Shown: positions 3,299-61,850 of the stretch, piece by piece
Layout: each line of letters begins with the position of its first letter
Position numbering within the stretch: position 1 is the stretch's first letter
Assembly: GCF_006345805.1 (NCBI RefSeq)
Contig: NC_043002.1
Location: 92,752,001 to 92,816,000, forward strand
From: Octopus sinensis
Taxonomy: Eukaryota
DNA length: 64,000 bases
Direction of reading: 5' to 3'
Notes under the pieces: model-generated
Databases searched by the model: none
Told to the model about the DNA's origin: nothing
The model's input: the letters and a program-made list of their open reading frames with translations, nothing else
Translations under genes and position numbers: made by a program

Positions 3299-4576
3299 AT
3301 GAAAAACGACACGGAAGTGGCACTTCGCCTGCCGCATCCAGCTCTCTGTCAGCTTGACTACCATTATTGCAAGGCCAGTGATCTGCTCGCTGACACTACC
3401 AACACGAGCAACACCAGTGGTGGGTCTAACCACCGAGTTATGAAGAGGAAGCTTCGTGACTTCGTAGACAGCTACAGAGAAGAAGAATTTTACCTTGAAC
3501 GTCCAGCACCGAAACGTGTCTCACCGTTTCTAAACACGCCCAAACAACGCAAGGACGAACGCAAGCGAATTGTTCGTTTGTCCGTACATAAACTGCGGGC
3601 AATGGAAGACCCGGAGAACTTTCTACGGAAGTCCGTCCTAATCAACAACGTGCTCCGTCGACTTCACCAGGAAATCCGTGAAGAGAAACGAGGCAATACA
3701 CGTTTTAGTGGAAGTCTCGGCTTGGCTTCTGCCGGTTATCCGTACTACAGACCTCGAAGAATCGATTACGATATGCTTGGTAACAGTTACTTGCCAACAC
3801 CAGCTGCTTTTCTCTTTGATGAGCCGTGTTTCCCGACTGAAACCGAAAAAATTACCGACGACATGACCGACTCACTGGTACGAAGTCTTGAGGCCAGTAC
3901 GCCTCCACCTTCGCCACCATCGTCTCCAGCTGCAGTTAACCATTTAACGACGACGACGACGGCGGCGGTGACGGGGGTGAATATCACTACCACCAGTCTT
4001 GTCACTCCTATTACCGCCACTACTACTAGTACTACCACCACAACTGGTAGCAGCAGTAGTACTACTACGACTAACAACACTTCTATTATTTCTACTACTA
4101 CTACTACTACTACTGTTACTACTTCTACCGCCACCCCAACTAACAATACCGCGACTACGACGACGACGACGACGACGGGTGCAACTAATACAACGTCGTC
4201 GAATTCGCTGCCCGGTAACGTTAGTAGTAATAATCATATATGTAGTAGTAGTAGTGGTAGTAACGGCAGTAGCAACTTGTGTGTGAATAACACTAATACT
4301 AACAATGACAATAATAATAATTACAACATTATCAATTTTAACACCTACAATAACAACAACAACAACAGCATACACCACAACAACTTTAGTACTTCAAATT
4401 TTCTAACCAGTAGCCATGTTGGTTTTACATCATTTGCAACGACTCCACCTACCGGTTTACCGGATTATCGGAATACCGGAATAACTAGTGCCGGAATTAC
4501 GGTACAAGAGAAGCAATTATCAGTTGATATGGACGTGGTATTTAATAATTTAATCAGAGCTTTAGGCGAAACTTAG
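3299..4576 (+). CDS. SERTA domain-containing protein (SERTAD4-like); probably the terminal coding exon, with splice acceptor at 3284
   Basis: 425-aa ORF with SERTA motif ERKRIVRLSVHKLRAMEDPENFLRKSVLINNVLRRLHQEI, basic MKRKL motif, Thr/Ser/Asn low-complexity tract and amphipathic C-terminus VFNNLIRALGET. Polypyrimidine tract plus TTTCAG ends at 3284 and the frame is open from there. AATAAA at ~4588 and 4922. Confidence 0.9.
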   Translation: MKNDTEVALRLPHPALCQLDYHYCKASDLLADTTNTSNTSGGSNHRVMKRKLRDFVDSYREEEFYLERPAPKRVSPFLNTPKQRKDERKRIVRLSVHKLRAMEDPENFLRKSVLINNVLRRLHQEIREEKRGNTRFSGSLGLASAGYPYYRPRRIDYDMLGNSYLPTPAAFLFDEPCFPTETEKITDDMTDSLVRSLEASTPPPSPPSSPAAVNHLTTTTTAAVTGVNITTTSLVTPITATTTSTTTTTGSSSSTTTTNNTSIISTTTTTTTVTTSTATPTNNTATTTTTTTTGATNTTSSNSLPGNVSSNNHICSSSSGSNGSSNLCVNNTNTNNDNNNNYNIINFNTYNNNNNNSIHHNNFSTSNFLTSSHVGFTSFATTPPTGLPDYRNTGITSAGITVQEKQLSVDMDVVFNNLIRALGET

Positions 4577-4772: not shown

Positions 4773-5106
4773 AAAAAGGTTAAGAGAAATTGTATGTCAA
4801 GTGTACAAAGAGCAACAAAAAAAAAATTGGATGAGCGAACGTGAAAAAGGAAAGGGAATGGTTTGAATGAATAGTGTCAAAATTCAAAGTAAAATTTAAA
4901 ATATATATATATATATATATCAATAAAAACTTATATTTCAATTATATATTAAAAAATATGAGAATTGTCTTGTTTATTTTGCTTTTGTTGCTGTTTTTTT
5001 TTTTTTTTTTTTTTCTTTTTCTTTTGGTCTATTTTTGGTAAAAGAGGAGTAAAAAGCTTATCAACAAAGGAATAGATTTGAATATATCAATTGCAAACAG
5101 GTCGCT

Positions 5107-6230
5107 GATAAGAGGTTTCGAAAAAGGTATACGTTCACAGCAGCGTACTTGTTTCAAAGATAGGTCTGCACACTGTGTTTGTTTGTGTACACGAATATGC
5201 ATACGCATTTTCATCGAATTTTGGAGTACGTGATAAGAGGTTTCGAAAAAGGTATACGTTCACAGCAGCGTACTTGTTTCAAAGATAGGTCTGCACACTG
5301 TGTTTGTTTGTGTACACGAATATGCATACGCATTTTCATCGAATTTTGGAGTACGTGATAAGAGGTTTCGAAAAAGGTATACGTTCACAGCAGCGTACTT
5401 GTTTCAAAGATAGGTCTGCACACTGTGTTTGTTGTGTACACGAATATGCATACGCATTTTCATCGAATTTTGGAGTACGTGATAAGAGGTTCGAAAAAGG
5501 TATACGTTCACAGCAGCGTACTTGTTTCAAAGATAGGTCTGCACACTGTGTTTGTTTGTGTACGCGAATATGCATACGCATTTTCATCGAATTTTGGAGT
5601 ACGTGATAAGAGGTTTCGAAAAAGGTATACGTTCACACAGCAGCGTACTTGTTCAAAGATAGGTCTGCACACTGTTTGTTTGTGTACACGAATATGCATA
5701 CGCATTTTTATCGAATTTTGGAGTACGTGATAAGAGGTTTCGAAAAAGGTATACGTTCACACAGCAGCGTACTTGTTTCAAAGATAGGTCTGCACACTGT
5801 GTTTGTTTGTGTACACGAATATGCATACGCATTTTCATCGAATTTTGGAGTACGTGATAAGAGGTTTCGAAAAAGGTATACGTTCACAGCAGCGTACTTG
5901 TTTCAAAGATAGGTCTGCACACTGTGTTTGTTTGTGTACACGAATATGCATACGCATTTTCATCGAATTTTGGAGTACGTGATAAGAGGTTTCGAAAAAG
6001 GTATACGTTCACAGCAGCGTACTTGTTTCAAAGATAGGTCTGCACACTGTGTTTGTTTGTGTACACGAATATGCATACGCATTTTCATCGAATTTTGGAG
6101 TACGTGATAAGAGGTTTCGAAAAAGGTATACGTTCACAGCAGCGTACTTGTTTCAAAGATAGGTCTGCACACTGTGTTTGTTTGTGTACACGAATATGCA
6201 TACGCATTTTCATCGAATTTTGGAGTACGT
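5107..6230. repeat. Tandem repeat, 125-bp unit x9
   Basis: Units start at 5107, 5232, 5357, 5481, 5605, 5729, 5856, 5981 and 6106. Near-identical, differing mainly by 1-2 nt indels. Confidence 0.97.
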
Positions 6231-6464
6231 GCTTCAGTAATAAGCAAATATGTTCGACAAAGGTATGTGTGCGTTTGTATGTAGCGTGTACAGAATTGAA
6301 GCTGGAAATGCACTTGAGTTTTCAATGAGGTTTATTTACATAAAAAAACAACCGGTTTCACAATTTTAAGATTATCGAAAATAGTATAAATGGATGGACG
6401 TGGGAGCTATACCACTTATTCGCGCCTCTGTTGACTAAGATATAAAAAATGCATGTATACACTA

Positions 6465-9351: not shown

Positions 9352-12211
9352 TGTGAGTTTGGATTTATTGGTATTTATTATTGGTGTGCGTCTGTATAGT
9401 AAGTGCAAGTTTCTATTGACTGTTTTTGTGTTATTTCCTGTTATAATTATTGTTCCTGTAATAATTATTTGTGTGATAGTCTTCGTTCGAAAGCTATCGT
9501 GTGTTTTCCCCTGTGGGGGAAACATTAATTGCTGGCAAGATGCCAAAAAGTGTAACTTCGTCTGGCGAAGAGTCGTCAACCAACACGGAGGCAAAAAAGA
9601 TTGATAGTTTAATATTTGGTGATATTTCGGATTCTTCTGAAAGTGAATTTCCCCAACCATCAATGGGTACTGTTGCAAAGAGGAATATTGACGTGAAAAG
9701 TATTGAAACAGAAGAAAATAAACAAAAAAAGTTTTGCGTCGGCGGCTGAAGGTGGAACCCGCCAGCTGTTGACAAACAAAAATGACCTGATAAAGTACAA
9801 AGATATGATAATTGAAGACGGTGTTGTAAAAGTTCAACCTCCGGAAGAACTATTAATGTTACAAAAAAGAAAAACAATTATTTTAAAATCTTACTGTCTA
9901 AAAAGAAAACAATTAATCGAGTGAGCGAAGAGAAAATTGAGAAGTGCTTGAAACCCTTCTGGGAGGATATCACATACCTAGCCAGAGGGAAGAAGTTTAG
10001 TACTATCGAAGTACGACTAAAAGATATAGAAACTGCACAAATGCGCTGTTAAATCTTTAGAAACGGGGGACGTTGTTTAATTCAATATATATGGGAATGA
10101 GGACGTCAAAGATACATATACCAAGGGTCCCACCTCAAAGTCGACCCTATATGGTTGATGACGGCAGCCCTGGCAAAAAGGAAGATAATATAACACTCCT
10201 TCAGGCTACCGTCACAGGAAAGGTTTATTGGACCGGTCAAACGGTTCACCTAATGCAAGCAGAACAGTCAAGTTTAGAACAGTTACCGGAGAAAATAGAA
10301 ATTGGGGAGGATCTTCTTAACGTATACGTCGAAGGGCGTAAGCCCCGATGTTTTCAGTGTGACCAGCTGGGCCATATAAAAAAACACTGTAGAACCGGCG
10401 AAGAAGAATCCGATGGTGAGGAAGAGAGAGAAACAAGAAAAGAAAGCAACTAACAACGAGAAAAATAGAAAGCTCAAATCAACAAAAGCAGGTCGAACTA
10501 AGATTTTAAAAAACTGCGAAAAGAGACAAGCCAAAAATAGTAAGGAAGGGAGCAGAAGACAGAGATAGTCGCGTTATACAGCAAAAATGAAGATTTAATG
10601 AGAGAAATAAAGGCGAAAAAAATCAGCCACTAGGATTGCAGAACTTTCTGATAAATATAAGAACTACAAGTTCTACGAAATGGATAAAAAGACTTATAAT
10701 GTATTAGTTAACACGTATTTAAGTAATGTCTATTTACATTGGTTGTGTAAATGTTCGTGGCCTGATGTCTAGCTGGAAGCAAGGGCGCTTCCTAAATGAC
10801 ATCAGGTCAAGAAAATTAGATGTGATTGTTGCAACGCAAACCCGGGTGAAGGGGCCAAGAGATCTGCTCCCCCTCCTGAACGGCTATGAGAAATACGTTT
10901 CTCTGAGTCGGGTGGGAGGTGGGGTGGGGTGTTGGTCCTACTAAAAAGAAACCGGGTAGCCGAGAAAAAGTTGTTTTTTTTCTGATCCAGAAGGCAGGTT
11001 TGGTTGCCCTCGACCTGACATTCAGTTGCGGCACGATAACCAGGCTGCTTGCAATTTATGCACCCAACGTTATGGGTTCTAATTAGAAAAACAGAAGTCC
11101 AAAGCTAAGTGACCACAAGATGGTTACCAGTAAGCTGACAGTAGATAAGTTGCATAGAAAGGGATCTGGCTACTGGAAACTCAATAGTTCCTTTTGGCGA
11201 TTGAGGAGTACAGAAAGCTGATCGAGATGTTAATACAGAGGGCATTGACAGGTACCATCATTAATAACAAATGGTGGCACGCCCTAAAAGGAGCCATAAA
11301 ATATGAGTCTATTAGATTTAGCATAAGTTTAGCTAAGAAGGGACGTAGAATAAGAGATGATCTAGTTAAGGAACTAGAAGAAGCCTGGAGGACTGATAAT
11401 GCAGACCAAGCGAGGGTGAAAAGACTGGAGTTAAACCAGCATCTTGAAGCCCAACACATGGGGAGTATTGCCAGAGCTAAGTTACGTGCGATGGGAAGTG
11501 AAGGAATCAAGGCTGCTGGACGGACCCGAGTGGTGGAAGCTCGACAAGAAAATAGTTCCACTATTCGGTCTTTGACGAATCAAAATGATGTCTTGGTAAA
11601 CGAATCCGAGGAAATGTGTGAGGCCTTTCGGGAGTACTTCGCCCAGCTGTTCGGCGGTGATGGCGGTCCTGATGGTGGGGGAATCCTCGAGGACTTTCTT
11701 GCCGGGCTGCTGTGCCTCTCGGGGTCGGATGCGGAGTCTTGCGAAGGGCTAATCACGCCTATGAGGTGATGGAGGATATGGCCGACTGCAAAGCGGGTAA
11801 GTCGCCGGGACTTGATGTTCTTCCGTACAAGCTGTATAAATGTATGCCAGTCTTGTTCAAGCACCTACTGGCTGACGTGTACACACGAACTGGCCACAGA
11901 ATGGGTTGGTGATAAATCTAGCGAAGGTGGAGCATTGGTACATTTTGATCAGTGTAAAGCTTTTGATGGAAGCATGTTGCACGAGTGTTTGCGTGCAAGG
12001 AACCGTGTGAATAGGCTATAAAGGAACAAAAATTAAAAAAAAAGGTAGCAGCGATAGATCGGGGCTTGTGGGGTCGGAGCGTGTTATATATCTATTGTTA
12101 ATTTCATTCGATAAATAATTTTTATATTCATAATTTTATGTAAACTCATAACGATCCCAATCAATTGGTTTGTCCATTTGTGTTTCGCCCCCTGTGGGCA
12201 ATACAGAAATT
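9352..12211 (+). mobile_element. Decayed, internally deleted Tx1/L1-like non-LTR retrotransposon (ORF1 zinc knuckle; ORF2 APE endonuclease and RT remnants)
   Basis: ORF1 CFQCDQLGHIKKHC (in 10073-10453). ORF2 start MSIYIGCVNVRGL (10726), SDHKMV and GSGYWKLNSS (~11108-11190), GKSPGLD (~11795), DQCKAFD (~11947). Multiple stops and frameshifts. 13-bp TSD GGTATTTCGTTTG/GGTATTTCGTGTG at 9339-9351 and 12212-12224. Confidence 0.85.
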
Positions 12212-14410: not shown

Positions 14411-15199
14411 CATCTTCAGAAACAATTTGTCCATAAAAGATGAACATATGAGTGGGGACGAGCATGGACACCACAACAATGTTTGTTACAATGAAATCAC
14501 AATGAAATCGTAATTTTAAAAAATTTGAAAAATCGGGATGGATATAGAAAAATGACAAATTCGAATGTAAAGATAGATGTGGGGTTCTAATCAACCCGCC
14601 TGTTTTCTCTCTTTTCTTCGACACCTTCCGCTCGCATACTACAGGCATCCATCTTTTTCGAAGCACCGCTCGCATCATTCTTAACTACAGGCATCCATCT
14701 TTTTCGAAGCACCGCAGGTGATTAACTTACCTGTCTCAAGCAGAAGAAACTTACCAGTGCATACCTGTCTCAATTCCCTCTTCCACGCGTCGTCCATACT
14801 GTGTCTTACAGTATGGCGTCTGGAAGGAATGTGTGTAGCGTCTGATCGTTACATTGAACATGACAAGTTTAGCAAAGAGAATCTGCACCAAAAGTTGCCA
14901 AAAGCTGGCGATATCGCCAACAAGATGTCGTGGAGCTCAAAACCCGAATATCTTTTTGGTCAGTTATACTTGATTTTAATACTGCTGCCGATGCTTTTCA
15001 GCGTTCCAAGTTGATAAACTTTTTCAATTTGTTGGGCGCCTTAAAAAGAAAAATTTTGGGGATTTTATACTTGCTGAAATAGAAATCTAGATTTCTTTTA
15101 TCGAGGAAACTCGTCCTTCTAGGGTCGTAAAAACTCACCGATCTAAATCAATTGAAACTAAAAAAAATTAAGATAAAGACCAAATTCAGATGTAGATAA

Positions 15200-15205
15200 T
15201 TTATT
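15200..15205 (-). terminator. Polyadenylation signal AATAAA of the protamine gene
   Basis: TTTATT on + at 15200-15205, about 65 nt downstream of the stop codon. Confidence 0.6.
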
Positions 15206-15270
15206 TCTACTGATTATTAACAGTCAAGAAAGGTGTGAAGACGCTGTTGCCACTAAAATTGTTAGGCTGA

Positions 15271-15615
15271 TTAGGCTGATGAACCATATGGGTCCGAAGA
15301 CCTCCTCCGTCCCCTTGAACGCCTTCTCCTTCCACGCCTTCTCCTATGCCTCCTCCTCCTCCTCCTCCTTCTCCCTCCATGCGCTCTACGTCTCCCTCTC
15401 GAACGACGACGACGACCTCTTCGCCTGCGACCCCTGCGACCCCTTCTTCTTCTTCTGCGGTAACCTCCATCCAACAAACTCTGCTGGCTGTTAGCATTAC
15501 GAGGAGCTGTGATTCTCCGACGCCTATAACCGGCAGCGACTGAAGGCGTCCGGCAACCATTGATGGAGCCGAGAAATTTACGGCCCAGAGTCTGAACCTT
15601 ATCTTTCAGAATCAT
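15271..15615 (-). CDS. Sperm protamine precursor (114 aa; pro-region plus two Arg-rich protamine units)
   Basis: MILKDKVQTL...SLLDGG|YRRRRRRGRRGRRRRGRRRRSRGRRRAHGG|RRRRRRRRHRRRRGRRRRSRGRRR-SSDPYGSSA. Arg codons are mixed (CGN, AGA, AGG), so it is not a simple microsatellite. The ATG at 15615 is the first ATG after a TATA/Inr promoter, and AATAAA lies downstream. LLxGG before the Arg run resembles cuttlefish/squid protamine precursors (recalled). Confidence 0.85.
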   Translation of the reverse strand: MILKDKVQTLGRKFLGSINGCRTPSVAAGYRRRRITAPRNANSQQSLLDGGYRRRRRRGRRGRRRRGRRRRSRGRRRAHGGRRRRRRRRHRRRRGRRRRSRGRRRSSDPYGSSA

Positions 15616-15678: not shown

Positions 15679-15756
15679 AACTGATACAGACAGGTCGAGA
15701 CCTTCCCTTATATAACATTTGATGGCTAAGCACGTGATCATATTTCTATGACGTGT
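15679..15756 (-). promoter_or_regulatory. Pol II core promoter of the protamine gene (TATA + Inr, E-box, CRE half-site)
   Basis: Minus strand TATATAAG at 15714-15707. Inr TCAGTT with A at 15682, 30-32 nt from TATA. CACGTG at 15731-15736. TGACGT at 15749-15754 (+). Confidence 0.7.
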
Positions 15757-21618: not shown

Positions 21619-22016
21619 GGATGGAATGGATGGAAGCACTCCGTCGGTTACGACGACGAAGGTTCCGGTTGATCCGAATCAACGGAACAGCCTGCTCGTG
21701 AAATTAACGTGTAAGTGGCTGAGCACTCCACAGACACGTGCACCCTTAACGTAGTTCTCGGAGATATTCAGCGTGACACAGAGAGTGACAAGGCCGGCCC
21801 TTTGAAATACAGGTACAACAGAAACAGGAAGTAAGAGTGAGAGAAAGTTGTGGTGAAAGAGTACAGCAGGGATCACCACCATCCCCTGCCGGAGCCTCGT
21901 GGAACTTTTAGGTGTTTTCGCTCAATAAACACTCACAACGCCCGGTCTGGGAATCGAAACCGCGATCCTACGACCGCGAGTCCGCTGCCTTAACCACTGG
22001 GCCATTGCGCCTCCAC
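21619..22016 (-). mobile_element. SINE family B
   Basis: Full-length reverse copy; TSD ACTTTTT. Confidence 0.9.
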
Positions 22017-22203: not shown

Positions 22204-22589
22204 TTGTGGAGGCCCAATGGCCCAGTGGTTAGGGCAGCGGACTCGCGGTCGTAGGATCGCGGTTTCGATTCCCAGACCGGGCGTTATGAGTGTTTATTGA
22301 GCGAAAACACCTAAAGCTCCACGAGGCTCCGGCAGGGGATGGTGGTGATCCCTGCTGTACTCTTTCACCACAACTTTCTCTCACTCTTACTTCCTGTTTC
22401 TGTTGTACCTGTATTTCAAAGGGCCGGCCTTGTCACTCTCTGTGTCACGCTGAATATCCCCGAGAACTATGTTAAGGGTACTCGTGTCTGTGGAGTGCTC
22501 AGCCACTTACACGTTAATTTCACGAACAGGCTGTTCCGTTGATTCGGATCAACCGGAACCCTCGTCGTCGTAACCGACGGAGTGCTTCT
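22204..22589 (+). mobile_element. SINE family B flanked by ~130-bp direct repeats
   Basis: Full-length copy; 22068-22203 is repeated at 22590-22719. Confidence 0.9.
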
Positions 22590-29952: not shown

Positions 29953-31187
29953 TTAGGTTGTTACACATGAAATGTATTTGAAAGGTGACAATAAAATGTT
30001 TCAGAAGCAATAGAGAACTGATTTATTTAATTTAATCAAAGTATGATCCATGTTCATTTATGACGTTTACCCAACGTTTCGCTAAGTCATATATTCTATC
30101 TTTAAAAAATTTTCCATCTTTTGTTGTGACAAACTGTTCGAATGCTTCAATTACCTCCTCTCTATTTAAAAATGTTTTGTTGCATAAAAAAAGCTCAAAA
30201 TGCTTAAATAAGTGATAATCAGTTGGAGAGATATCAGGGGAATAGGGAGGATGTTGCAAAAGCTCATAATTCAGGCTTTGCAGCATTTGGACCATAGCTC
30301 GAGGAGTGTGAGGACGTGCATTGTCGTAGAAGCAAAATTGGGCCATCCCTATTCACTAGTTTGGGTTGCTACTTTTCGAATTCTCGTGCATACAATCAAT
30401 ATTCCTGGCAATACGAAGCTGCTGTTACTGTTTTCCCTTGTTGCGAAAATGAATAATGAATAATTCCCTTCGCAAACCACCATACAGAGACCATTGACCT
30501 TTTAGGGTGCAATGGTGGTTTGGGGCAGTGTTTAGGTGGCTCTCCTGCATCTAACCACTGCCCTGTTCTCCTGTTGTTGTCAAAAAGCATCCATTTCTCA
30601 TCACGTTCAATGCAAAAGTGGTTCTTTTTCCAATCGAGAAAGCAATAAGGAGCATATTTCGAGGAACCTGCTTTTATTTTTCTCGTTCAATTGATGTGGA
30701 TCAAACTTATCCATTTTCTTGACTTTTTCAATTTTTTTTTCAGGTATCAAGAATCAGTTATGCAAGATGTTTGGAGTTCTGATGAAAGTTTTCAGACCGT
30801 TGTTCTCAGAGTCTGTTCAACCAAAGCTTTTACTCCATCAATCCGAATAACTGATCGCCACCCTCCAATAGTTCATTTACAGGGCTATCATCGACTGAAC
30901 GAAATCTTTGGAACAATCTCTGAAAAGTTCTGATGTCAACAAAACCATTACCGAAAACCCGTTTCATGTTCCATACAGGTTCTGCAGCAGAGTGACCCAG
31001 TTTGTACTCATATAAGAAAACTACTCGACATTGTTTGGTTATCATTTTCATAAGGTCTGTGGGTACGAATTTTGTATACCAATATTGTCTGGAAAGAAAA
31101 AAAATCAAGATTAGACGCAAGAGTATACATAATTGAGCTTTTAAATGACATAACTAATTAAAAATGAGACATTTCATGTGTGAAAAG

Positions 31188-57290: not shown

Positions 57291-57677
57291 TTGTGGAGGC
57301 GCAATGGCCCAGTGGTTAGGGCAGTGGACTCGCGGTCATAGGATCGCGGTTTCGATTCCCAGACCGGGCGTTGTAAGTGTTTATTGAGCGAAAACACCTA
57401 AAAGCTCCACGAGGCTCCGGCAGGGGATGGTGGCGATCCCTGCTGTACTCTTTCACCACAACTTTCTCTCATTCTTACTTCCTGTTTCTGTTGTACCTGT
57501 ATTTCAAAGGGCCGGCCTTGTCACTCTCTGTGTCACGCTGAATATCCCCGAGAACTACGTTAAGGGTACACGTGTCTGTGGAGTGCTCAGCCACTTACAC
57601 GCTAACTTCACGAGCAGGCTGTTCCGTTGATTCGGATCAACCGGAACTTTCGTCGTCGTAACCGACGGAGTGCTTCC
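57291..57677 (+). mobile_element. SINE family B
   Basis: Full length; 10-bp TSD ATAATCTCTC. Confidence 0.92.
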
Positions 57678-58130: not shown

Positions 58131-59680
58131 TGTGGTGCTTTTCTTCACTACTGAAGTGATGGTGGGTGATCTTCCCCTCTGTGACCTGGTGGGGCAAAAT
58201 CTACTGAGGAAATTATTTAGATGATCATGATCTCAGTAGATTCTGCCCCACCAGGTCACAGAGGGGAATACCACCCACCATCACTTCAGCAGTGAAAAAA
58301 AGCACTACAGAGCGATGGAGTGGCTGGACTGCACCCACCCGAAATCCTGAGAACAACAATCAGATGGAAGAAATGATTGCACATGCAGTAGGGGCCAGTG
58401 TAAAAACGACATTGAAGAACCACATAGTAAAGTTTAACAAAAAAACTATACATGCAGGTTGAAGGTGCAGCTATCGGTGTCGGTGTAGCTAGAGATGTGG
58501 CCGGCCTCTTCATGACCTGGTGGGACAGAAAACAAATGTTAGCAGAACAGTCCACAACTCTTCTACTCTACAGTAGATATGTAGATGACATTAATATCAT
58601 AGTTAGGACCAACTCTAGTGACGGTAGTGAAGAAACTGAGAAGGACGTAATGGAGAGCATCCAGCAAATAGCTAACTCCATCCACCAAAGTATCAAGGTA
58701 ACTATAGATTACCTCACTAAGCACCCCAACAATAGACTACTTGTACTTTATACTGAACTTTGGTTAGAGACTGTGAACAATAGAGTGCTGCTCCTCCAAT
58801 CCTATTACATGAAACCCCGAACTTCAAAATATGTTGTTCACAAGAACTCAGCTTTATCACACAACATGAAAATTAACATACTGATAGCAGACTTACTTAG
58901 AATAATGAACAATATTGCCCCCGCTATGCGAACCCTATGAAACGAAAAAATATATACAGAACTTCATGCATCGCATGCAGTTCTCTGGATATGATCAGAA
59001 AGATAGGGTTTGAGTATACAGGTCGGCTAGAAAGAAATTAGACAACATTATATGTAATGATACCAGTGGTACCTGCCCTAAATATAGAAACAAAGAATGG
59101 AATAGGATACAAAGAGCTTGTGATAAAGCAAACGGGGCGAACACGTGGTATAAAACCGACAAATATCAAGCAGTGATGTTTGTAGAGGCCACAGCCCATG
59201 GAGAACCAGCCCGTAGATTTAGAAAAGCTCTGAAGGAGACCAAACTCAACATTAAGATTGTTGAAAAGCTAGGGAACTCATTCAGATCACAACTATGTAG
59301 GACGTACCCCTTTGAGAATACCATATGATAACTGCATGGTATGTAGGATTAGCCCTGGCATGAACTGTAGAACTCAAAATGTAGTTTACAGCATAAGATG
59401 CATAGAAGTTGCTTGTAAAGACATGAACATGACATACAAAGGGGAGACATCTAGGAATATTGCAGAACGAGTAAATGAACATCTGAGACGATATGACGAC
59501 AAAAAACAGTCCTCCATACTCTACCAACAGGCCAAAGACCACCACGGAGGCAACTTGGGTCAACTTGACATCCGCATCTTATCCAAGCACCCAAAAGACC
59601 CAACACTCAGGTAAATACGGGAATACGTCCTTATAAATGAAACCTCCCAATACTAAATAGAAAATATACATAGTAGATAT
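58131..59680 (+). mobile_element. Penelope-like element (probably Naiad clade): RT + GIY-YIG pseudogene with 5' fold-back
   Basis: LYMQVEGAAIG, YSRYVDDINI, MQFSGY, CPKYRNKEW, VMFVEAT, CMVC..NCRTQNVVYSIRC..YKGETSRNIAERVNEH. Frameshifts near 58920 and 59325. Confidence 0.82.
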
Positions 59681-61463: not shown

Positions 61464-61850
61464 GTGGAGGCGCAATGGCCCAGTGGTTAGGGCAGCGGAC
61501 TCGCGGTCGTAGGATCGCGGTTTCGATTCCCAGACCGGGCGTTGTAAGTATTTATTGAGCGAAAACACCTAAAGCTCCACGAGGCTCCGGCAGGGATGGT
61601 GGTGATCCCTGCTGTACTCTTTCACCACAACTTTCTCTCACTCTTTCTTCCTGTTTCTCTTGTACATGTATTTCAAAGGGCCGGCCTTGTCACTCTCTGT
61701 GTCACGCTGAATATCCCCGAGAACTGCGTTAAGGGTACACGTGTCTGTGGAGTGCTCAGCCACCTACACGTTAATTTCACGAGCAGGCTGTTCCGTTGAT
61801 CGGATCAACCGGAACCCTCGTCGTCGTAACCGACGGAGTGCTTCCACTCC
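61464..61850 (+). mobile_element. SINE family B nested in the core of a SINE A copy
   Basis: 12-bp TSD ATTAAAATAAGT. SINE A head at ~61335-61460, remainder at 61851-61930. Confidence 0.9.

Follow-up and report, generated by a model that had tools for sequence, protein, structure and literature searches.

Layout of the predicted precursor gene

Within the window, the 64,000-nucleotide stretch of Octopus sinensis DNA, a compact gene on the minus strand encodes a short, arginine-rich protein that is predicted to be a protamine precursor (Table 1). The layout proposed by a sequence-only reading of the same DNA, in which a 51-residue pro-region ending in LLDGG is followed by units of 30 and 24 residues and a 9-residue tail, was recovered at every coordinate, and the AAG-YRRRR stretch that it placed in the pro-region was located at residues 27–34. 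The protein contains two Gly-Gly pairs in total, each immediately ahead of one unit, while the Ala-Gly that closes pro-segment 1 is possibly a relaxed or vestigial cut site. The tail is not preceded by Gly-Gly, so that its removal would require another cut; with the tail included, the predicted mass of unit 2 is 4331.9 Da. Nine nucleotides at the stop codon occur a second time in the 3′ UTR (positions 15262–15270), and one public sequencing run, X13, lacks 9 nt at that point.

Table 1 Features of the predicted protamine precursor gene, in window positions and ordered from promoter to poly(A) signal
Feature	Position	Strand	Remarks
CRE-like half site ACGTCA	15749..15754	minus	139 nt upstream of ATG; motif match only
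E-box-containing 11-mer GATCACGTGCT	15729..15739	minus	Shared with the C2 gene, where it also precedes the TATA box; motif match
TATA box TATATAA	15708..15714	minus	30 nt ahead of the initiator-like element
Initiator-like TCAGTT, predicted transcription start	15679..15684	minus	69 nt to ATG, no other ATG between
Single-exon ORF, predicted protamine precursor	15271..15615	minus	114 aa plus stop; net charge +47
Pro-segment 1 (aa 1–29)	15529..15615	minus	Ends in Ala-Gly, then a short Tyr-Arg4 run
Pro-segment 2 (aa 30–51)	15463..15528	minus	Ends in QSLLDGG
Gly-Gly site 1 (predicted)	15468-15463	minus	Last residues of pro-segment 2
Predicted protamine unit 1	15373..15462	minus	30 aa, 20 Arg, 3942.5 Da, ends in AHGG; putatively released
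Gly-Gly site 2 (predicted)	15378-15373	minus	Last residues of unit 1
Predicted protamine unit 2	15301..15372	minus	24 aa, 20 Arg, 3480.0 Da; putatively released
C-terminal tail	15274..15300	minus	9 aa, non-basic; no Gly-Gly ahead
Poly(A) signal AATAAA	15200..15205	minus	~65 nt past the stop

Arginine accounts for 14% of the pro-region, 67% of unit 1 and 83% of unit 2, and lysine is absent from both units. The common motif noted earlier in the two units comprises 15 residues that are identical in each, a match reached in 30 of 20,000 shuffles. Only one of the 15 codons agrees between the two copies (23 of 45 bases), indicating that the protein sequence, and not the DNA, has been kept. The internal duplication that had been suggested for the units is plausible from this shared motif, but with the codons saturated convergence would give the same picture. 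AGG makes up 14 of the 20 arginine codons of unit 2. Across the whole ORF the arginine-codon entropy is 2.07 bits, compared with at most 1.49 for the other 11 frames rich in Arg or Lys within 399,700 bases of flanking DNA, and with arginine codons mixed to this degree an origin by microsatellite read-through was ruled out. No Pfam family was matched by the ORF or by either unit, and no hydrophobic signal peptide can be seen in the protein.

Several other features lie in the window. A 425-aa ORF (3299–4576, plus strand) with a SERTA domain and a long low-complexity stretch of Thr, Asn and Ser is annotated in public collections; its 90% cluster contains proteins bearing the name Octopus vulgaris and, unlike the protamine ORF, is present in the protein collection. 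A tandem array with a unit of ~124 nt (5029–6328) yields repeated short ORFs. Judged by eye, the broken frames at 9540–12021 and 58452–59614 (both plus strand) look like remnants of non-LTR retrotransposons (endonuclease/RT-like, GIY-YIG-like), and fragments at 30032–31051 (minus strand) resemble mariner/Tc1 transposase. A short interspersed repeat is present four times in near-identical form (21679–21882, 22339–22542, 57427–57630 and 61596–61799, plus strand), each time with the same 67-aa frame.

Predicted transcript boundaries and public sequencing runs

The promoter elements, the ORF and the poly(A) signal have the order and spacing that are right for a gene. A transcription start near 15682 had been anticipated, which agrees with the initiator-like site at 15684 and with a contig of run X18 that ends at 15682. 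An in-frame ATG at 15741, giving a 156-aa form, was rejected as the start because it is upstream of the TATA box.

Part of the stretch is contained in 20 of the 24 public runs listed, none of which is recorded as RNA; the other four showed next to none of its words, from which nothing follows. Eight runs from 8 studies and with 8 organism codes were assembled at the locus (seven guessed to be RNA and one of unknown kind), and every one of them gave a single contig inside 15191–15682. The X18 contig (15201–15682) is one piece with no joint and no difference from the window, the X1 contig (15253–15651) is also one piece with no joint, and each of the two bridges both Gly-Gly sites. The 3′ contig ends fall near the poly(A) signal, at 15201 in X18 and at 15191 in X13. 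This contig extent, which matches the predicted start and the poly(A) signal, hints weakly at an unspliced transcript in runs that are not recorded as RNA, and carries no information on testis. Read depth and the lack of cover outside that interval were given no weight. One silent change was found in run X8 and one Asn-to-Asp change in run X12. A testis transcriptome has been published for O. maya, according to PMC6341066.

Run X13 contains a diverged relative (90–95% alike) that keeps the reading frame. Among the six coding changes listed, out of 11 differing letters in the aligned pieces, five are silent; these include all four listed in the pro-region, which lie in pro-segment 1 and where the expected silent share ranges from 26% (any change) to 36% (transitions). 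The sixth listed change turns Tyr52 into Phe. In unit 1 the gaps add up to 15 nt, and the stretch left unaligned is 9 nt shorter; both keep the frame. None of the six listed changes (of the 11 differing letters) falls in the codons of Gly-Gly site 1, and Gly-Gly site 2 lies within the unaligned part of X13, being otherwise covered by near-identical runs alone.

A second gene of similar design

A second similar gene, unannotated and encoding 104 aa, was found on the minus strand of contig C2 of genome G000 (G000:C2:194693443-194693757; L113:1404-1718). The codon search of G000 that led to it used a nine-residue Arg/Ser/Gly motif which is common to both units and free of Gly-Gly, and returned 7 matches compared with 12 in the control: two in the window gene, one in the C2 gene, three in simple repeats and one in an unrelated frame. 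The C2 protein begins with MIVKE and the window protein with MILKD. Its segments end in LLVGG(G), FNGG and SIGG and are followed by a 44-aa unit in which 35 Arg are joined by 8 Gly and 1 Ser and by no other residue; RRGG occurs near the unit's end. In the C2 promoter, the same 11-mer (GATCACGTGCT) occurs 21 nt ahead of TATATAA (25 nt in the window gene); AATAAA is located 161 nt past the stop, and no CRE-like half site was found in the 260 nt upstream of the gene. BLASTP gave no alignment between the C2 and window pro-regions, and the homology of the two genes, which we consider likely, therefore rests on short motifs. Unfiltered local alignment pairs QSLLDGG of the window protein with QSLLVGG of C2, and 344 of 20,000 shuffles were as good.

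DNA and protein searches indicate that the window gene is single copy in G000, eight other DNA matches being simple-repeat arginine frames. A GG-(Y/F)-Arg6 pattern gave 60 matches in G000 compared with 89 in its control, and among the 30 examined the window gene alone is protamine-like. The Protamine_P1 family (PF00260), searched in G000 with no positive control, gave no match, and the surroundings of the window (400 kb) and of the C2 gene (200 kb) yielded no further protamine gene. Of two patterns designed from the two genes themselves, the shared promoter motif has 18 unrelated matches out of 20 and QSLLxGG two out of four; L134–L139, on small contigs of G000, are copies of an RT-like repeat that match the promoter motif by accident. 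A three-element promoter pattern was dropped, its frequency being no higher than that of its control.

When the predicted products and precursors were looked up by exact sequence in a collection that includes UniRef, none was found (10 of 10 and 7 of 7 negative), and neither start form of the window ORF nor the exact sequence of the C2 gene is present in the protein collection. No homologues were found for the whole window protein at E ≤ 0.01, for residues 1–56 at E ≤ 1, among proteins of 30–61 aa at E ≤ 10 (a search that lists nothing under 30 aa) or among 1.84 billion representatives at E ≤ 0.001. The ESM Atlas returned only two bacterial clusters, under 0.8, which were rejected as compositional.

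Gly-Gly pairs as candidate junctions

The sequence-only reading had treated Gly-Gly as a recurring junction, and the C2 gene adds three further instances. At all five junctions of the two genes, two non-basic residues precede the Gly-Gly and an Arg is no more than two residues away; the segments ahead of the junctions measure 12–51 aa. With arginines fixed, a count of five was reached in 3 of 10,000 shuffles of both proteins, and the C2 junctions alone in 6 of 1,000, on a statistic chosen after seeing the sequences. For the window ORF alone, two GG pairs before long arginine runs arise in 2.3% of whole-protein shuffles, and in 27% when the Gly-rich region only is shuffled, which makes the double Gly-Gly weak evidence.

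The P4 residues at the five junctions are Leu, Ala, Leu, Phe and Ser, and the P1′ residue is Tyr after site 1 and Gly after the first C2 site. The sole other GG in the two genes lies inside the C2 unit and has Arg at P3 and P4, suggesting a rule by which units are spared. Because the arginine-rich C2 unit carries this internal RRGG, Gly-Gly by itself is probably not the signal.

Comparison with known precursors

Mature protamine chains range from ~3 to 10 kDa according to PMC11607694, and the predicted units, given the proposed cuts, fall inside this range at 3.9 and 3.5–4.3 kDa, as does the uncut tandem of 8.3 kDa. As average masses before phosphorylation, 8256.4 Da is predicted for the uncut tandem with its tail and 13811.7 Da for the whole precursor, and the C2 gene is predicted to give 6028.0 and 7429.6 Da. 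Both units also show the very high and clustered arginine content of protamines (67% and 83%). In Octopus vulgaris, sperm proteins Po1–Po5 were reportedly sequenced as separate proteins by Gimenez-Bonafe et al. in 2004 (Mol Reprod Dev), with sizes said to be ~24, 30, 44 and 56 aa; the 44-mer is said to consist of Arg, Ser and Gly only and the 56-mer to be its N-terminal extension. These sizes equal those of the fragments of 24, 30, 44 and 56 aa predicted from the window and C2 genes, the 24-residue form needing trimming; the fragments may be the same proteins, and exact look-ups of them were negative. We know of no shared precursor for two small O. vulgaris protamines, and in the literature searched, which did not cover older cephalopod papers in subscription journals, no report was found that described protamine genes of octopus, a precursor with tandem units or processing at Gly-Gly.

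Protamine precursors commonly lose an N-terminal part, squid included, and the squid and cuttlefish precursors (Loligo opalescens; Sepia T1/T2 to Sp1/Sp2) likewise carry an arginine-rich protamine behind a cleaved pro-region, as described in PMC12216123. Each yields one mature unit of ~58 aa (PMC3073880). The window gene differs from them in its two short tandem units with a tail and its several stacked pro-segments. In squid and cuttlefish the protamine pro-peptide ends in Gly-Gly. The H1-derived protamine-like precursors of Mytilus, tunicates and the liverwort Marchantia are cut into one or several peptides, and the Marchantia precursor resembles the window gene in giving several basic products from one chain (PMC13148410; PMC13251019). 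Unlike the window ORF, with its 51-aa pro-region and no Pfam family, the H1-derived precursors carry a winged-helix H1 domain, and a common Gly-Gly motif at the junctions sets the window gene apart from them.

Polyubiquitin and SUMO precursors are likewise cut after a C-terminal Gly-Gly, but they have a ubiquitin-like fold, which their proteases normally recognise. The ubiquitin/SUMO-like processing logic that had been proposed for the window gene therefore stands for the di-glycine only; no Pfam family and hence no ubiquitin-like domain precedes either site, so that it is not a case of SUMO or ubiquitin maturation in the strict sense. As an analogy, the maturation of adenovirus core proteins is closer, pVII and pre-mu being basic, DNA-condensing precursors that are matured after Gly-Gly or Ala-Gly, as proposed for the window gene; from pre-mu, a basic middle piece of 19 aa is released (PMC7998265). 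The proteases of adenovirus and ASFV cut after Gly-Gly and I7L of vaccinia after Ala-Gly, and all three are related to SUMO proteases and act on linear sites in core proteins (PMC1198262). The adenain consensus is given as (M/I/L)XGG-X, with P4 relaxed in places, in PMC4246237. It occurs at two of the five octopus junctions, LDGG at site 1 and LVGG at the first C2 site, while the other three break the P4 rule; adenain substrates are viral, and no sequence homology to them was shown.

Candidate proteases

To our knowledge, the proteases that cut protamine precursors are largely unidentified, and the literature searched contained no report linking protamines to SENPs or di-glycine. Our tentative suggestion, one we would hold with less than even confidence, is a Gly-Gly-reading cysteine protease of the SENP/Ulp1–adenain kind, the alternatives being a deubiquitinase or some unrelated protein. 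The adenain family (PF00770) gave no match in G000, in a search run with no positive control. The SENP-type search of G000, which favours intron-free genes, identified a SENP1/2-like frame of 868 codons on contig C5 (L164:745-3351, plus strand; G000:C5 ~127.9957–127.9983 Mb) with the whole catalytic domain in one exon. It matches human SENP1 with an E-value of 4e-62, and the catalytic His, Asp and Cys motifs are aligned. Its flanks are long and unrelated, its three start forms are absent from the protein collection, and it is possibly a retrocopy. The shared promoter motif was not found within 1.5 kb of the frame; from its sequence the C5 gene is a candidate protease, and nothing ties it to the protamines. 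Two partial Peptidase_C48 matches with internal stops (L165, G000:C1794; L166, G000:C8695) probably represent either fragments or single exons of SENP genes that contain introns.

Alternative readings of the locus

The anatomy of the window gene, the reading frame kept in X13 and the existence of the C2 gene all support the earlier proposal of a protamine-type precursor gene, and we are confident that it is real, conserved and unannotated and very likely encodes such a precursor. A non-coding or microsatellite-derived frame, or an arginine-rich protein with a different function, whether somatic nuclear or antimicrobial, appears very improbable. The tissue of the runs is not on record, no Pfam protamine family is matched and AGG dominates the arginine codons of unit 2, all of which would suit such a reading, but the changes in X13 are silent-biased with indels in frame, the arginine codons are mixed, no hydrophobic signal peptide is visible and the C2 gene has the same design. 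Moreover, units of 3.5–3.9 kDa with 67–83% Arg and Gly/Ser spacers fit the definition of a protamine as given in PMC11607694 and PMC13251019. Since the C2 gene is punctuated in the same way, both genes likely make sperm DNA-packing proteins that would be freed at Gly-Gly pairs.

For the window precursor, our main reading is that two protamines are released by cuts after Gly-Gly, to which we assign a probability of roughly 65% on the evidence of the sequences. It is distinctly less probable, and in our judgement quite unlikely, that the pro-region alone is removed to leave one protamine of 54–63 residues with AHGG as an internal spacer. Such a chain would be of a size like that of the squid protamine Sp2 (58 aa; PMC3073880), AHGG breaks the adenain P4 rule, the C2 unit retains an internal GG and the local shuffle null stands at 27%. 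Site 2, however, has non-basic residues at P3 and P4 like the four pro-region junctions and unlike the internal RRGG, and the two halves of the chain have the 15-residue motif in common although their codons are saturated, which is what separate units would show. Separate octopus protamines of 24 and 30 residues have also reportedly been sequenced. A somewhat better, though still unlikely, alternative accepts the release of two products but has the protease read the start of the arginine run or an exposed flexible linker, with Gly-Gly giving access only. Every one of the five junctions is at most two residues from an Arg, P4 varies among them, there is no ubiquitin-like fold to serve as an exosite for a SENP or deubiquitinase, and the tail could not be removed at a Gly-Gly. 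Yet the residue after site 1 is Tyr and that after the first C2 site is Gly, neither of them Arg, an arginine-directed enzyme would shred units that are rich in single Arg-Gly-Arg spacers, and it is Gly-Gly that recurs five times, not merely any small residues.

Proposed processing and its meaning

Under release at Gly-Gly, the gene would be transcribed in spermatids from the TATA/E-box promoter common to the window and C2 genes, and the uncut precursor would bind DNA with its charge diluted by the pro-region. Stepwise cuts after x-x-Gly-Gly, with both x non-basic, would then strip the pro-segments, and a cut at site 2 would split units 1 and 2 in a 1:1 ratio and tighten the chromatin. The predicted products are a 30-residue protamine and a 24-to-33-residue protamine from the window gene, and a 56-aa intermediate followed by a 44-aa product from the C2 gene, while Arg-Arg-Gly-Gly within a unit is predicted to escape cutting. 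Removal of the tail to give the 24-aa form of unit 2 would call on a second activity that does not act at a Gly-Gly. A more far-reaching proposal, and a doubtful one, is that the octopod protamine set derives from two modular polyproteins, punctuated by non-basic-x-Gly-Gly sites and matured in order by an enzyme of the SUMO-protease type that was repurposed for linear basic substrates on DNA; the intron-free SENP1/2-like gene on C5 would be a candidate for it.

Precursor cleavage and multiple products are already known elsewhere, and the octopus form would be a variant of these. In many animals the cutting of protamine precursors is thought to drive steps of chromatin condensation (PMC13251019). 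From the five like-built junctions follow a site rule and exact masses for the fragments, which open the way to a search for the protease by means of inhibitors, activity probes and mutated sites. Should the SUMO-protease reading prove true, the maturation of adenovirus core proteins would have its counterpart in a cell, and a protease that processes protamines would be known by a site code that can be read. If the reported peptides match, four octopus sperm proteins would be traced to just two loci, and two of these proteins would be held at a 1:1 ratio by being made as one chain.
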